This document shows positions 4,052-37,759 of a stretch of DNA of 64,000 nucleotides, one piece after another. The notes under the pieces were generated by a model. It saw only the letters and a list, made by a program, of their open reading frames with translations, made no database searches and was not told the origin of the DNA. Source of the DNA: a virus; IMG/VR virus record IMGVR_UViG_3300007734_000758. One strand, given 5' to 3'. The first letter of the stretch is position 1. Each line of letters starts with the position of its first letter. The position numbers were made by a program, and so were the translations under genes.

Positions 4052-5366
4052 TTTCTATCTTTTTTAATTTAGGTAATTCAATCTTTTTAGGTTGTTCTAC
4101 CTTCTTTAGTGAAGGTAATTGTAATTGAACACGTTGTGGAATTCGGCTTCCTACTGTATCAATAATTCGTTTCACTTCAGCATTCATTCGTTCCATAGTG
4201 AAGTTAGCTAATGCATACTGTTTCTGCTTCTGTGCTTTATCCAAATACGAATCATAATTAAAATACATATGTTTCATCATACCAGAAGCATACGGGTAAT
4301 TCACTACAAACCATTTGGAATTTTCTAGAATCCATTGATTGATTGCACTCTTACTAACCGGTTTCAATTCTCCCGGGAGTAATGTTACAAAATTCTTACT
4401 TAGGAAATCTTTGTGGCCTGACCAATCCGGAGCCATGATAGGTTTTCCTACCATTGAAAATTCTAAGAACGGCCTACCAAATCCCTCACCATGTGTGAAT
4501 GAAACCATTGCTTTAATCTTAGGATGGTTGTACAGTGAATTCATTTCAGTATCACTTAAATCACCATGCAGTAGATAAACATTCGGTGAGTCTGAATAAC
4601 TATCCATAATAAATGTTATCTTTCGCATAATATCTTCTCGGTCGATAATTGAGAAGGTCGCTCCGCTAGTTTTCAACAGTAATGCCGGCCTAGATTCTTT
4701 AGGTTCATTCTTAAATGTTTCAATAAAAGTCTTTACCAGCATACCTAAATCTTTCCTATCAGCACCTAACTCTCCCTGTAACCAATGGCCTACTGATAGG
4801 AATACGAACTTTTCCGGTATTGAATCAATTTCAGCTGCTACATCCTTATTCAATTCAGCACGGGTAATAGATTTGTAGATATCAACATCACATCCCTCAA
4901 ACAAGACTGTCATCGGAACATTCACTTTCAATTTATCTATTACCTGCTTGGTATTGTTGTCTACCTTATCGTATGATACATTATCAAATACTAGTTTTGA
5001 ATGTTCAGAAGTAACAATGACTTCATTCATCCTATTCATACCTTCAATCCATTCAGGAGAACATACGTCCGTCTCAATACCAGCCGTAATACCGATATTA
5101 TAATTTCCCAATGCCTGAAACTCATTTGGAATAGAAAGCTGAATAAAGATATCCGGTTTCGGTACTTCACCGAAAATAATTCTACGTTTAATCTCTGCAT
5201 ACTTAGGATCATCCAATCCGGTCATCGGAGTATTGCCCCATGGCAACGATATAAACTTTACATCGTAATCCGCCAATTCTAAAAGTGCTAGAGCAATTTC
5301 GCGTGCATGTGCACCGTATCCCGACCTAGTACTTACCGGCGATTGTAAATAAATAGTTTTCTTCAT
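4044..5366 (-). CDS. glycosyltransferase family 4 (GT-B)
   Basis: SGYGAHAR, RKDLG, HGEGFGRPFLE (E-x7-E), WSGHKDF. Confidence 0.9.
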   Translation of the reverse strand: MKKTIYLQSPVSTRSGYGAHAREIALALLELADYDVKFISLPWGNTPMTGLDDPKYAEIKRRIIFGEVPKPDIFIQLSIPNEFQALGNYNIGITAGIETDVCSPEWIEGMNRMNEVIVTSEHSKLVFDNVSYDKVDNNTKQVIDKLKVNVPMTVLFEGCDVDIYKSITRAELNKDVAAEIDSIPEKFVFLSVGHWLQGELGADRKDLGMLVKTFIETFKNEPKESRPALLLKTSGATFSIIDREDIMRKITFIMDSYSDSPNVYLLHGDLSDTEMNSLYNHPKIKAMVSFTHGEGFGRPFLEFSMVGKPIMAPDWSGHKDFLSKNFVTLLPGELKPVSKSAINQWILENSKWFVVNYPYASGMMKHMYFNYDSYLDKAQKQKQYALANFTMERMNAEVKRIIDTVGSRIPQRVQLQLPSLKKVEQPKKIELPKLKKIENV

Positions 5367-10466: not shown

Positions 10467-11182
10467 GTATGCTGAACTTCAACCAGGAAATATTCACTCT
10501 TAAAACCATCACCCATACACACAACACGCATCAGGCCTGCATTTGAAACTTCAATAGTACCTGACTTCATATTGGAGTTGGCCTTAAAGATTTCAACCAA
10601 ATAATTCGAATTAAATGACTTATATTGAACATCACCTTCAACATCAGCCTTAATATCAAAACTGATTCGAGTCGTATTGTTTTTAGAGTAACCAATAATG
10701 ATTTCAGGAGTGCCTGATTTAGTATTGAATGTGATGTGGCTAATGTCTGGCAATGCTCCCTTTGCTTTGCTAATCTTCCCAATCAAGTCACTCGTAATAG
10801 GAACAGACAATTGGAATGATGGAAGATTTTTAGGTTTCGCGGCAGCAGGAATCACACTCAAATCAGCCAACATATATTGGGCCTTCGTGTCGGCATCTCC
10901 CAATTCAAAATTGATTGGGCGACCATCGATACTGTTCATCTTAATCGCAAGCGAATCACCGAATACATCCAATACCTTTACAAAGTTAGATGTAATAAAG
11001 ATACCTACTTCCATGTCATCCATATCAACATCTTCATATACTACTTTACCAATCAGTCCTTTGTCTTCGGTAATGACATCAGTGGATATCTCCTTTCCGG
11101 AGATTGACCATTTTACGGCTTCTACATTGCCGCCTAAATTGTACTTCTTAATGAAGTCCGATAATGTACTTTTTAGTTTCAT
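10463..11182 (-). CDS. sliding clamp (gp45-like)
   Basis: Size, beta-rich sequence, position immediately upstream of clamp loader. Confidence 0.7.
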   Translation of the reverse strand: MKLKSTLSDFIKKYNLGGNVEAVKWSISGKEISTDVITEDKGLIGKVVYEDVDMDDMEVGIFITSNFVKVLDVFGDSLAIKMNSIDGRPINFELGDADTKAQYMLADLSVIPAAAKPKNLPSFQLSVPITSDLIGKISKAKGALPDISHITFNTKSGTPEIIIGYSKNNTTRISFDIKADVEGDVQYKSFNSNYLVEIFKANSNMKSGTIEVSNAGLMRVVCMGDGFKSEYFLVEVQHT

Positions 11183-34013: not shown

Positions 34014-35075
34014 TTATTCTCTTGGCATAGCGGATAAATACCCAAAACTAGTACGTAGCCAAGTGTCAATATCTTTTATTACAGTAAACATCTTATCCAT
34101 CATGAACATACGTTTAAACTGAGCAATATTGTATTCGTTGGTGGGACGTGCTGCAAAATCTAACAACATTAGTTTTGCGTTGCCGTTAATATCCGGTTCT
34201 TTCAATTGCATCAAAGCATAATTCAAATGTATCTTAGATTCATTAGTAACAATACTCTGAAACACTTTCTTCTCCTGATCCTTAGAGTTTTCAACTAAAA
34301 AATCAACAGAGAGTTCTGCATCAGCACTTAGTTGCGGGAATGCTTTTAAAAGTGTTTTAGCACCGATGCCAGGCACGCCTGATATATTATCACCGGTATC
34401 CCCAATCACTGCACGGTAGAGTAGAAAATTCTTTGCATTAACACCGTATTCTTGCAATACCAATTCCGGAGTATACAGTTTCTTTTTAATGGGACTCCAT
34501 ACATTAACTCGCTCGTTACATAATTGAAGATAGTCCCTATCAGATGAAACAATCACTACCCTCTCGGATTCTGTGAATACTTGGGTAGTTAAATATGCAA
34601 TAGAATCGTCTGCTTCTATGTTGTCAATAGCAATAGTACTAATCGGCAAACAATCTAGATACTCGATAAGCCTTTGGAATTGCATACGCATAGATGCCTG
34701 TTCATCCTGGATGTCTTCGAACTCTTCATACCGATTGAATTTAGTACGAACGGCACGGTTCTCTTTATATTCCGAATACATCTTCTTACGTTTAGCAGAA
34801 CCTCCCTTTCCATCAAATGCTATTATGCATCTGGTAGGTTTGAATGTTCTTACTAATAGTGCCAAGGACCGTAAGAATCCTGTCACGCCGCCAATGTGCA
34901 TACCATCATCATTTAGTGACGGTACGGCTGAAAATACTCGTATATACAGGTTGAGCTAGAGACCGTCGATAATCAGTACCCGATCATTTCTTTTCGTGGT
35001 AGCTGCATCGACGGTCTTATCTTTTTGCTCTGTTTGAAAATCCTGATAACGATGTAATAAATCGTTCCTGTTCAT
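34014..35075 (-). CDS. 5'-3' exonuclease / T4 RNase H-like flap nuclease, with in-frame TAG at 34956-34958
   Basis: ATG 35075 overlaps the recA-C stop; reads ...VLIIDGL*LNLYIRVF...FDG, YKENR, EADD, SSDRDYLQ, GDTGDNISGVPGIG. The ORF-track version lacks the N-terminal DG motif. Confidence 0.85.
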
Positions 35076-35917
35076 TATGCTTCTTCGTTAATTACATCCG
35101 AATCTACTGTCACTTCATCAATTCCACCATCAATACCGGGACGGTATTTGAAGATATAAGCATTGCAGATATCTCGGTACATTGCTGCCTGGACTTCAGG
35201 TCGTTCTTGTAACAGCGTATGGAATGATTTGCTTTGGAATTTTATCTCCTCACCGGTTTCTTGGTCTATATAAGTATACCAGGCACCAGCGTTCGTAATC
35301 AAACCATAATCTTTCATGAGTTCCATCCATCCTCCGTAATTATCAATTCCGGATTCAAAATAGATATCATAACCAACCATCCTCAACGGAGGTCCGATTC
35401 GATTCTTAACTACCTGCGCATTTGTTTTTATACCAATAATCTGTTCAACACCGGCGCCATTTTTAACTTTAATTTGGCCGATGGATTTTAAACGTAACCT
35501 AACAGATGCGTGGAAGGGAATTGCTTTCCCGCCGCTAGTAGTATTATGATTCAATCTGCCATTTGCCAGATATGTATGATCATTACTATCTACTTCAATA
35601 TCAACTACGTGCATTGGCTCATCAATCACTTTAAAATCCGGGTGCTCGCATGCAAAGATTTCTTTTCCATTTTCTACAAATCGGTGATTACCAGAAACTT
35701 TTATGTGTCCGTCGGTATAAAATGAATTGACACTAGGTTTGACTATAAAACTTTTAATTGGAACGAAGACTCGATTTCCTGTACTCGAATCTATGGATTC
35801 TACTTCCAATTCGAGATCCGATAAATCATACATCTCTTCTTCAGAGAAATTGTTTAATTGTAAAAAACGATCGGCAAGCTCAGCCAATGTAATTTCTTCT
35901 TCTATGTATTTGCTCAT
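35075..35917 (-). CDS. recA: RecA C-terminal half fused behind a 125-aa C-intein
   Basis: Intein SGNH (block B) and VDIEV..HTYLANGRLNHN, then TTSGGKAIPFHASVR, KNRIGPP, AGAWY. Confidence 0.92.
   Translation of the reverse strand: MSKYIEEEITLAELADRFLQLNNFSEEEMYDLSDLELEVESIDSSTGNRVFVPIKSFIVKPSVNSFYTDGHIKVSGNHRFVENGKEIFACEHPDFKVIDEPMHVVDIEVDSNDHTYLANGRLNHNTTSGGKAIPFHASVRLRLKSIGQIKVKNGAGVEQIIGIKTNAQVVKNRIGPPLRMVGYDIYFESGIDNYGGWMELMKDYGLITNAGAWYTYIDQETGEEIKFQSKSFHTLLQERPEVQAAMYRDICNAYIFKYRPGIDGGIDEVTVDSDVINEEA
35543..35917 (-). mobile_element. split intein C-fragment (125 aa)
   Basis: Ends His-Asn, +1 residue Thr. Confidence 0.9.
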
Positions 35918-36963
35918 ATATGTTCTTTTATTATTTGTTTACATTTTTCAACATCAGTTAAAATATCATTTTCCCACAGCACTATCACAGTATAAGAATT
36001 TTCTTTTAAAGATACAATTTTTTCTTCATCATATTTCCATATATCAGCAGCTATTCTAGATTTATGTGTGGTATCTGTTGGTTTGAAATACTTAGGATTT
36101 GCATGCCAAAAATCCCCAAAACACTCAACTATAATATTACCCTGAACTAAGAAATCAGGTACATATGATTTATCGTTTAAATGTATTGTGGTTTCGTATT
36201 GCCACTCTAAGGACAAATCATTTAAAATCAAGGCTATTTGATATTCAATCGAATTCATATCATAACCGTTAATTTTAAAATTTTTTTGCTTGTGCGAAAG
36301 AAGCATCCTATAAAATTTATCAGGATCGTTTTTCCTAGCATCATGCCACATATTTTTAGCTGCCCGCGATATTTTTTGTATCCTGTCGGGAGCGTTGCAC
36401 GCTGCAACAAATCGTTTCTTATATTCAGGATCAAGCATACGTTCCCTATTCTTCTCGGATATCCGCTCGTAATGTCCCGAATCCTTACGAGTTTGTATTT
36501 GTTTATCTCGCCACGCAGGATCCGTTTTCCACCGTTCAGAATTTTTCTTACCGATGATAGTCGCCCATTTTTTTTGTTTTAATTGTAACTTATTTCTAGT
36601 AATATCACCTGCAGGTGATTCATAATGCTTTTGTAATGAAGCACTAACTCGTCTTCCTATCATATTTTTTTCTTGAAGCAACATTTTCGAATCATCCGGC
36701 TTAAATGTATCTACATACCACTGTATTAAGTTAGTCTTAGCACAAAGTTTTTTTCTTTCATGAAAAACCTCATTTCCTAGAACATCGCCCAAATAATGAA
36801 TATAGTATTCTTGCTGTACGCCACTATAAGGAATTCCGTTCGGTCGGATCGGGTGTGATTTATTCTCTTTAAATTGCTCTTTTAATTTTAATTTGATTTT
36901 TGGATTTGTAGGTTCATTGTTATAGGTTACATCAAAAAAATCCAGTATTAAGTCAGTATTCAT
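35914..36963 (-). CDS. free-standing Vsr-like (EDxHD) homing endonuclease between recA halves
   Basis: PDF, VECFGDFWH, DEEK, VLWE; basic repetitive central region. Confidence 0.85.
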   Translation of the reverse strand: MNTDLILDFFDVTYNNEPTNPKIKLKLKEQFKENKSHPIRPNGIPYSGVQQEYYIHYLGDVLGNEVFHERKKLCAKTNLIQWYVDTFKPDDSKMLLQEKNMIGRRVSASLQKHYESPAGDITRNKLQLKQKKWATIIGKKNSERWKTDPAWRDKQIQTRKDSGHYERISEKNRERMLDPEYKKRFVAACNAPDRIQKISRAAKNMWHDARKNDPDKFYRMLLSHKQKNFKINGYDMNSIEYQIALILNDLSLEWQYETTIHLNDKSYVPDFLVQGNIIVECFGDFWHANPKYFKPTDTTHKSRIAADIWKYDEEKIVSLKENSYTVIVLWENDILTDVEKCKQIIKEHI

Positions 36964-37030
36964 AAGTCCCTCTGTTGTTGTTTATATGTTTTATACTTAT
37001 AAATATTAACAGAGGGACTTTTTATGAATA
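36957..37030 (-). promoter_or_regulatory. RNA hairpin sequestering the endonuclease start codon, with late motif in the loop
   Basis: TATTCATAA(AAA)GTCCCTCTGTT pairs with AACAGAGGGACTTATGAATA; ATATTTAT at 36999-37006. Confidence 0.85.
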
Positions 37031-37081
37031 TCAACCAATCTTGTATCGTATTTTTACTTTCGTACTAAACGGATCCACACA
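37031..37081 (-). mobile_element. split intein N-fragment (16 aa, CVDPFSTKVKIRYKIG)
   Basis: Cys start directly after FGDPW, then TGA. Confidence 0.85.
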
Positions 37082-37759
37082 CCAGGGATCTCCGAAACTT
37101 ACTCCTAATCGAGTCCTAAGCTGGTTTGTAAAGATTAAACAGATACGTTCACGGGCAATCATATTAGTAATCTTACGCATTGCCTTAGAAAGGATAATTG
37201 ATTTAGACGTAGCATAACCATCCTTATCATAATCCGCTGCCTGTTCAATCTTGGTAGATGCACCCATAATAGAATCGACTACAATAGTAACCAACCTATC
37301 TTTAGAGGATTTTCGAATTGATTCAACAATATTCTCAATCGCTTGGAAGATGTCCTCAATGGTTTCTAATGGAACATACAACATTGTATTTAGATCCAAA
37401 CCAATCGCTTCCAAAAATTCCCTACTGACAGCACTCTCAGTATCAATATATACTGCTAAGCCACCCTTTTGTTGGGTAGAAACGAGTGCATGTGCTGCAA
37501 GTAAAGATTTTCCCGAAGCCTCGAGCCCAGTAATCTCTGAAATTCGCCCTACCGGAAATCCTCCATTCGGTCGGTTAGCGATTGCTAAATCTAATAACGA
37601 TGAACCGGTTGATACGAATTCATTTACATCTGCAGGAGTATCAGTATCTCCATCTAAGAAGTACGCCACCTTATAATTGGTACTCTTAAACTGCTTGTTA
37701 AGATTCGCTGCTAGTGTGGATGCTAAATCATCCAACACTTCTAATTTTGTTTTGTCCAT
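37031..37759 (-). CDS. recA: RecA N-terminal half with short N-intein
   Basis: STGS..LD.A, GGFPVGRI.EITGLEASGKS, YIDTE, VVDS, FTNQLR. Confidence 0.95.
   Translation of the reverse strand: MDKTKLEVLDDLASTLAANLNKQFKSTNYKVAYFLDGDTDTPADVNEFVSTGSSLLDLAIANRPNGGFPVGRISEITGLEASGKSLLAAHALVSTQQKGGLAVYIDTESAVSREFLEAIGLDLNTMLYVPLETIEDIFQAIENIVESIRKSSKDRLVTIVVDSIMGASTKIEQAADYDKDGYATSKSIILSKAMRKITNMIARERICLIFTNQLRTRLGVSFGDPWCVDPFSTKVKIRYKIG

Follow-up and report, generated by a model that had tools for sequence, protein, structure and literature searches.

The interrupted exonuclease gene and its surroundings

The window analysed here, a stretch of 64,000 nucleotides, is part of a complete 157,151-bp phage genome from IMG/VR with 127-bp terminal repeats and a G+C content of 36.7%, and nearly all of the phage genes are encoded on the minus strand of the window. 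It carries a gene for a 5'-3' exonuclease (FEN), whose frame matches the Pfam families PF02739 (5_3_exonuc_N; 1.9e-33) and PF01367 (5_3_exonuc; 8.4e-09). The preliminary description of this DNA reported a matched-codon interruption, GAC GGT CTC TAG CTC AAC at codons 37-42, in an otherwise intact gene whose ATG overlaps the stop of the C-terminal part of recA. This proved exact in every detail: the codons lie there on the minus strand, with CTC-TAG-CTC at 34961-34953, the frame from 35075 to 34014 is open apart from the TAG, both Pfam domains match, and the start ATG overlaps the recA stop as TAATG at 35075 (Table 1). Gene callers split the gene into ORFs of 39 and 295 aa, and the 39-aa ORF is listed in every related contig. 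The downstream part lies in the zero frame and not in the +1 frame, which in the window closes about 14 codons further on.

Table 1. Features of the exonuclease locus in the window
Feature	Position	Strand	Remarks
Whole 5'-3' exonuclease (FEN) gene	34014..35075	-	353 codons; sole interruption is the TAG at codon 40
ORF1	34956..35075	-	39 codons (MNRND...VLIIDGL) plus TAG; strand beta-1 and first metal-binding Asp (D37)
Proposed take-off codon CTC (Leu39)	34959..34961	-	
In-frame TAG stop	34956..34958	-	in the A site at proposed take-off
Proposed landing codon CTC	34953..34955	-	decoding would restart at AAC (34952-34950)
ORF2	34014..34952	-	312 codons, from resume codon AAC to TAA stop; remainder of the nuclease
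First in-frame ATG past the stop (Met59)	34899..34901	-	only candidate restart; begins the 295-aa ORF of the gene callers
RNA hairpin (predicted)	34960..35017	-	11-nt perfect arms; inner helix inside the 36-nt loop
Hairpin arms	35017-35007 (AGACCGTCGAT); 34970-34960 (ATCGACGGTCT)	-	
Predicted extension of hairpin base	34953..35030	-	pattern not conserved in other lineages

It had also been argued that dropping TAG-CTC restores the expected metal-binding motif, IIDGLNLYIR, and that simple readthrough would add two residues at this point. Comparison with more than 300 homologues and with solved structures upholds both statements. Twelve homologues (52-62% identity; full length 346-355 aa) read IIDG-LN[TL][FY]IRVFS, all of them without the insert, and DG-L-N without an insert was also found in 80 further viral loci. 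Among 231 full-length FEN proteins the site reads DG-L-N in 230 and DG-M-N in one. A two-residue insert at this position was absent from all homologues compared (more than 300 overall), and HMMER alignment to the mycobacterial Pol I and Taq 5' nucleases placed a 2-residue gap exactly at the insert. The family alignment, set against the structures of Pol I, Taq, T5 and T4 RNase H, has D37, D88, E154/D156/D157 and D179/D181 as invariant residues, and the Asp aligned just ahead of the insert is presumably Taq D18, the first metal-binding Asp. Since the DG-L-N spacing is invariant, the FEN gene of the window has exactly two extra codons. A random in-frame insert of 6 nt would read as a stop followed by a copy of the preceding codon with a chance of about 7e-4 (3/64 x 1/64). 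Two possible sources of the six bases were rejected: inspection by eye of the hairpin arms and flanks gave no convincing template for a templated (quasi-palindrome) origin, and a tandem duplication of CTCAAC would require two more substitutions.

The neighbouring recA is itself fractured in the window (35075-37759, minus strand), while sister strains have an intact recA of 381 aa. Its N-terminal part (37031-37759) ends in SFGDPW and is followed by a 16-residue intein N-fragment, CVDPFSTKVKIRYKIG, and its C-terminal part (35075-35917) opens with an intein C-fragment of about 122 residues that ends in HN, directly before TTSGG. Between the two parts lies a free-standing endonuclease-like ORF of 349 aa (35914-36963). 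The recA intein looks like an atypically split one with a very short N-fragment, and a comparable split has reportedly been described for a metagenomic UvsX intein. The FEN insert is present alike in strains with the intact 381-aa recA and in strains with the split recA.

Fixation of the insert and its recurrence in diverged phages

The insert is real and fixed in the phage population. The sequence CTCTAGCTC followed the 39-codon ORF in all 15 contigs fetched, which represent at least 13 independent samples and come from three assembly pipelines (JGI, ENA and Logan), and none of these contigs was without the insert. Samples that contain the phage include SRR36466889, SRR24750919, ERR9974879 and JGI 3300010370 and 3300015375. 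The cluster of the 295-aa downstream ORF holds 7 protein variants across 29 contigs, and an insert-free allele above 62% identity was not found among 5.8 billion protein clusters. The assembly error that the preliminary description had kept as an alternative is therefore set aside, since the same 9 nt recur identically in assemblies of different samples made by different pipelines.

With the standard code, 93% of the phage genome is taken up by ORFs, and the 182 ORFs of the whole genome end in TAA (127), TGA (46) or TAG (9). The only tRNA gene of the phage, tRNA-Leu(UAA) (G000:C1:4425-4511 in genome coordinates), reads UUA/UUG and not the CUC of the proposed hop site, and no suppressor tRNA was found in the genome. 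Reassignment of TAG, for example to Gln, was rejected because a single gene is interrupted, TAG terminates nine ORFs and a suppressor tRNA is absent. An artefact of assembly or sequencing, or a reassignment of TAG throughout the genome, thus has a practically negligible probability as the source of the interruption. A second in-frame stop between matched codons was not found elsewhere in the genome. The sole other TAG junction on the coding strand (G000:C1:12406, plus strand; TTA ATT TAG GCG CAA) joins open stretches of 56 and 106 codons in frame, has unmatched flanks and is probably the boundary of two adjacent genes.

The FEN gene is functional, and purifying selection acts on both of its ORFs. 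In a set of 16 sequences (12 haplotypes, all insert-bearing) 29 sites of the gene vary, 24 of them synonymously, and the 5 non-synonymous changes are conservative (binomial p=3e-12, with 21% of the possible single-base changes being synonymous). The flanking genes behave alike, with synonymous to non-synonymous ratios of 17:1 in recA and 60:33 in dnaB. Two of the synonymous sites, at codons 44 and 54, fall past the TAG but ahead of the first in-frame ATG that follows it (codon 59). In addition, nucleotides 1-131 of the gene (34945-35075, minus strand) are free of polymorphism in the 16 sequences, where about 3.6 variable sites would be expected, which suggests either that synonymous sites there are additionally constrained (by the hairpin or by coupling to recA) or that a local sweep or conversion took place recently.

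Metagenomes were scanned for DG-Leu-stop-Leu-N, and IMG/VR was then scanned with the flanking codons free and with a free gap of 3-15 nt between GGN and AAY. The first metagenome scan gave two further lineages, with CTT TGA CTT and CTT TGA CTA, and overall at least seven lineages carry Leu-stop-Leu at the same FEN site. All three stops are used (TAG, TGA and TAA), in the forms CTT TAA CTG, CTT TGA CTG/CTA/CTT, CTT TAG CTC and CTC TAG CTC. The codon-stop-same-codon arrangement on which the preliminary description had built its proposal is thus present in orthologues, some of the pairs being synonymous only, with a third-base mismatch between landing and take-off codons in several lineages. The take-off codon is CTT in the other Leu lineages and never CTG or TTG, yet these two make up 51 of the 80 Leu codons in insert-free relatives. 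The insert-bearing lineages are mutually 40-62% identical and appear at scattered places in a tree of 241 FENs. When the middle codon was left free (YTN NNN YTN) the same 12 loci came back, with a stop in every one and a sense codon in none.

True FEN matches in the IMG/VR scans took only two forms, Leu-stop-Leu or GGC ACC TGA CA AAC, and genes with DG-stop-N or DG-L-stop-N were not found, though the scan patterns permitted them. The second form is a 5-nt insert, GAC GGC ACC TGA CA AAC, in two contigs, L124 (8471-8505) and L130 (IMG/VR 3300033074_001488 and 3300033075_001196). Their downstream frame is shifted, and the canonical spacing, as DG-T-N (DG-T-N-TFIRVF), could be regained only if the tRNA hopped by +5, from ACC to ACA; their FEN genes share the equivalent hairpin and an adjoining NUMOD3 endonuclease gene.

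Both the N-terminal ORF (31-39 codons) and the C-terminal ORF (312-324 codons) are complete in the insert-bearing genes, and neither a frameshift nor a second stop was found in any of about 30 genes. Between pairs of insert-bearing lineages, which are saturated at synonymous sites, dN/dS is near 0.1 over the whole gene and about 0.01-0.13 over the 20 codons past the landing codon. The distance from the stop to the first in-frame ATG, GTG or TTG ranges from +2 to +82 codons, depending on the lineage, so no restart site is conserved. The insert pattern had no match in bacterial and archaeal genomes, and the closest GenBank phages, Microcystis phage Mel-JY01 and Flavobacterium phage immuto, have an intact FEN without the insert. 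The two-gene FEN of Bacillus phage SPO1 was considered as a cultured case and rejected, as it is merely the boundary of neighbouring genes.

The upstream hairpin and the linked endonuclease gene

The 3' arm of the predicted hairpin is formed by the codons for I-D-G and the CT of the take-off codon. At its base, GAGC (35030-35027) is predicted to pair with the G of TAG and the landing CTC (34956-34953), and AGA (35022-35020) with the second and third base of the take-off codon and the T of TAG (34960-34958). The minimum free energy is -30.3 kcal/mol with the insert and -28.4 kcal/mol without it, and z is -6.2 for the 78-nt element and -4.0 in a context of 181 nt. An equivalent hairpin ending at the take-off codon, typically with the arms GCCGTCGAC/GTCGACGGC, was found in all ten insert-bearing genes examined, and in 11 of 80 insert-free relatives (Fisher 7e-11 by locus). 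Because these 11 belong to three lineages, including the nearest relative of the window (L017), the hairpin is not confined to insert-bearing genes. In the Val/Ile, Asp and Gly codons, changes at the third position are compensated in the 5' arm, which codes for an x-V-D that is not conserved. MAFFT misplaced the 5' arm of the window, so covariation counts understate the pairing, and the arms were instead read directly from the sequences. In insert-free L017 (2165-2233), L090, L096, L038 and L047 a strong hairpin terminates at the Leu codon, and its arms show compensatory changes, for example GAGCCCGTCA/TGACGGGCTC. The insert-free lineages with a hairpin may once have carried the 6 nt and reverted by losing them, or else the hairpin may serve some second purpose.

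Signals other than the hairpin were also looked for. All that the N-terminal peptides have in common across the lineages is xVD...VLIVDG, a stretch equally specified by the hairpin arms and by the enzyme motif, and no nascent-peptide element resembling KKYK was found in them. Past the landing codon no conserved structure was detected (mean z -0.63 in insert-bearing and -0.34 in insert-free genes). During take-off the ribosome encloses the 3' arm; the hairpin must therefore be open at that moment, and its role is a model and not an observation.

An endonuclease ORF of 312-346 aa lies between recA and FEN, overlapping the FEN start, in 8 of 15 insert-bearing loci, compared with none of the 80 insert-free loci (Fisher 5e-8). 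These upstream ORFs carry a NUMOD3 motif, and two of the five scanned gave a weak match of the PD-(D/E)XK type (REase_MTES_1575). In L115 (region 11082-11120) a remnant of 26 endonuclease residues lies between recA and FEN, and the full gene, an ORF of 312 aa at 4306-5241, is found in L116, which is 89% identical; this is evidence that the endonuclease was deleted in L115 and the insert kept. Patches of exchanged DNA may be read from two further pairs. The DNA of L100 and of insert-free L131 is 88-92% identical on either side of a patch of about 130 nt that is only 62-69% identical and spans the hairpin and the site; the two also differ by an exact 6-nt gap. L113 and L123 have nearly identical N-terminal peptides and C-terminal parts that are only 60% identical.

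No endonuclease gene was found beside FEN in the window or in 15 sister contigs, where recA abuts the FEN ATG. Since this phage has none at that position, we infer the cassette origin of its insert from the relatives. The phage has two relatives of the nuclease domain of the endonuclease elsewhere, one of them inside the split recA; the second PD-(D/E)XK-like domain homologue lies at G000:C1:71119-71361 (L133), beyond the window or at its edge, within an ORF of 511 aa in the same phage genome. The insert and hairpin most likely arrived on a homing-endonuclease cassette, where they would have rendered the target site uncleavable, and the window phage would later have been left without the FEN-adjacent endonuclease gene while the insert persisted. 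The preliminary description had listed a mobile-element scar as an alternative to its hop, and the evidence points to such an element, given that in the relatives the insert and hairpin are linked to the upstream endonuclease. Both ideas appear to be true together, the insert being tolerated because ribosomes hop over it.

The proposed stop-hop, its alternatives and known systems

We propose that peptidyl-tRNA(Leu) would be held on the CUC codon in the P site with UAG in the A site, that its anticodon would release and re-pair with the CUC six bases downstream, and that AAC would be decoded next. Nine bases would thus specify one leucine, giving a product with IIDGLNLYIR and the junction peptide VLIIDGLNLYIR, and ribosomes that do not hop would terminate and release a peptide of 39 residues. 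The conserved hairpin probably assists, melted while the ribosome occupies the take-off site and then refolding on the mRNA that exits the ribosome, which would drag the message forward. In this regard, pairing of the exiting mRNA has been proposed as a forward driver of gene 60 bypassing (bioRxiv 10.1101/2024.12.09.627546), and a hairpin that refolds upstream, next to a shift site, promotes +1 frameshifting and dampens the -1 kind, also in a 70S system (PMC6321510); both studies support the refolding model.

Several other explanations have to be weighed against this hop. Readthrough, in which a near-cognate tRNA would read UAG and yield FEN with two extra residues (IIDGL-X-LNLYIR, that is VLIIDGLXLNLYIR), is much better documented in nature than hopping, and it fits a frame that is continuous across the TAG and a C that follows the stop in every lineage, a leaky context in bacteria. 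We nevertheless consider it unlikely, as all three stops occur, UAA included, and one leaky type does not prevail; if the longer protein worked, sense codons at the site and homologues with a two-residue insert would be expected, and neither was found; ACC-TGA-CA is out of frame for readthrough; and readthrough has no need of synonymous flanks, yet the flanks are always a synonymous pair. Just as doubtful is an enzyme that is truncated or made in two pieces, with termination at the TAG and re-initiation at Met59 or a nearby non-canonical start, acting alone or together with the 39-residue peptide. The two ORFs reported by the gene callers agree with it, and purifying selection on ORF2 alone would fit it too. 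However, the Met59 product would be without strand beta-1, the first metal-binding Asp and helix alpha-1, CTC, CTA and CTT as landing codons offer no start, and the first possible start varies between +2 and +82 codons past the stop among lineages. Furthermore, purifying selection is strong over the 20 codons past the landing codon, and both polymorphisms in codons 41-58 of the window species are synonymous.

A shade less probable again is an inactivated gene, in which the immunity scar would have killed FEN, the 5' nuclease of the host Pol I would substitute for it and the apparent constraint would reflect recent origin or recombination. In its favour, T4 rnh is a dispensable gene, a selfish element is linked to the insert, and conversion patches can carry the insert between backgrounds. 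Against this stand the 24:5 ratio among 12 insert-bearing haplotypes, the approximately 30 genes free of any frameshift or second stop, the low whole-gene dN/dS between insert-bearing pairs (saturated as these are at synonymous sites) and a stop that changed among TAG, TAA and TGA, yet stayed a stop. Removal or bypass of the six bases at another level, by realignment of RNA polymerase or by hairpin-guided RNA processing, would make sense of a conserved hairpin that abuts the insert, but no known mechanism cuts 5-6 nt from a bacterial or phage mRNA, a homopolymer for polymerase slippage is absent, and a stop with synonymous flanks is a translational signature; we hold it to be very improbable. 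All in all, the three stops, the lack of sense codons, the +5 form, the constraint past the landing codon and the varying starts argue against readthrough, re-initiation and pseudogenisation, and they agree with a hop for which the A site must hold a stop (or be empty for another reason) and a codon must be available for re-pairing. Among the points against the hop is yield, as synthetic stop-hops are about 1% efficient and it is questionable whether this would give enough FEN enzyme; others are the third-base mismatch between landing and take-off codons in several lineages, the presence of the hairpin in three insert-free lineages and the negative search for a nascent-peptide signal or a downstream structure.

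We infer from comparison of sequences that ribosomes hop here, that the hairpin contributes and that the insert served immunity, and give a probability of roughly two in three to the reading that full-length FEN is made by a ribosomal +6 stop-hop that derives from an endonuclease-immunity cassette like that of T4 mobA/gene 60. The minimal matched-codon hop put forward in the preliminary description is strongly supported by this comparative evidence, through fixation, selection, recurrence with all three stops, the +5 variant and the lack of sense codons. The purpose given there, throttling of a toxic nuclease, found no support and is less likely than an origin in endonuclease immunity. Somewhat more cautiously, we favour the wider proposal that a natural programmed +6 (and +5) hop, driven by refolding of the hairpin, would let an endonuclease cassette block cleavage inside a catalytic motif while keeping the enzyme gene alive. 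The hop device may outlive the endonuclease, as in the window, and may represent a general, unreported class of minimal bypass elements. If this is true, a 9-nt site with one conserved hairpin would be the simplest natural system for release and re-pairing of peptidyl-tRNA, and homing endonucleases would be able to shield their host genome through inserts inside catalytic motifs. For annotation, phage metagenome genes that are listed as "split" or "truncated" in this way would probably prove to be intact.

In 1987 Weiss, Dunn, Atkins and Gesteland obtained hops of +5 and +6 in E. coli with synthetic constructs in which matched codons flank a stop, according to a review that cites them (ref 54 in PMC5009743). 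On natural in-frame stop hopping the verdict of the same review, published by Atkins and colleagues in 2016, is that "no occurences are known" (PMC5009743). It also describes the byp elements of Magnusiomyces capitatus, 81 mitochondrial inserts of tens of nt, whereas the FEN insert belongs to a phage and is based on a stop; byp elements use an unused A-site codon instead of a stop and are without a linked endonuclease or hairpin (PMC5009743). A full-text literature search for stop-hop and for exonuclease with bypassing returned no later report of a natural case. Like the FEN site, the synthetic stop-hops have matched or synonymous codons on both sides of the stop and nine bases for one amino acid, and both synthetic geometries, +6 and +5, occur among the natural FEN lineages. 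The constructs of Weiss and colleagues reportedly used Leu CUN codons. The synthetic hops were engineered, had low efficiency and were without stimulatory signals, whereas the FEN arrangement is natural, fixed and conserved and has an upstream hairpin.

A further parallel is offered by CUU-UGA-C, which we take to be the shift heptamer of prfB (RF2). Most of the sister lineages of the window share it at the FEN site (CUU UGA CUA in L100), and with it a shift-prone P-site Leu and a poor stop. Unlike in the prfB +1 shift, FEN continues in the zero frame (+6), so a +1 shift would be a dead end, and CUC UAG C of the window cannot re-pair at +1.

To our knowledge, T4 gene 60 and its homologues are the sole well-studied natural case of programmed bypassing in bacteria or phages. 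The gap is 3 nt in FEN (2 nt in the +5 variant), compared with 50 nt in gene 60 (20 nt in one clade), and neither a take-off stem-loop in the gap, a nascent-peptide signal nor an internal Shine-Dalgarno sequence was identified in FEN, whose hairpin differs in position from the take-off stem-loop of gene 60. The target is FEN here and a topoisomerase in T4, FEN is not split into two proteins, and the FEN-linked endonuclease has NUMOD3 and the weak PD-(D/E)XK-like match in place of the HNH of T4 MobA. The T4 element is made up of the bypass insert, an endonuclease gene and a replaced "homologous region" of 67-81% identity, and in some genomes the endonuclease is gone and the gene 60 bypass retained, as described in a paper that makes no mention of exonuclease genes (bioRxiv 10.1101/2022.08.31.505936). 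In gene 60 (Huang 1988), as in the FEN relatives, a few dozen codons separate the insert from the start of its ORF, and this start is overlapped by a free-standing homing-endonuclease gene just upstream; the replaced region around the FEN insert, at 62-69% identity, is comparable with that of gene 60. Lastly, the two systems have in common the loss of the endonuclease with retention of the bypass, and insertion at a metal-binding site.
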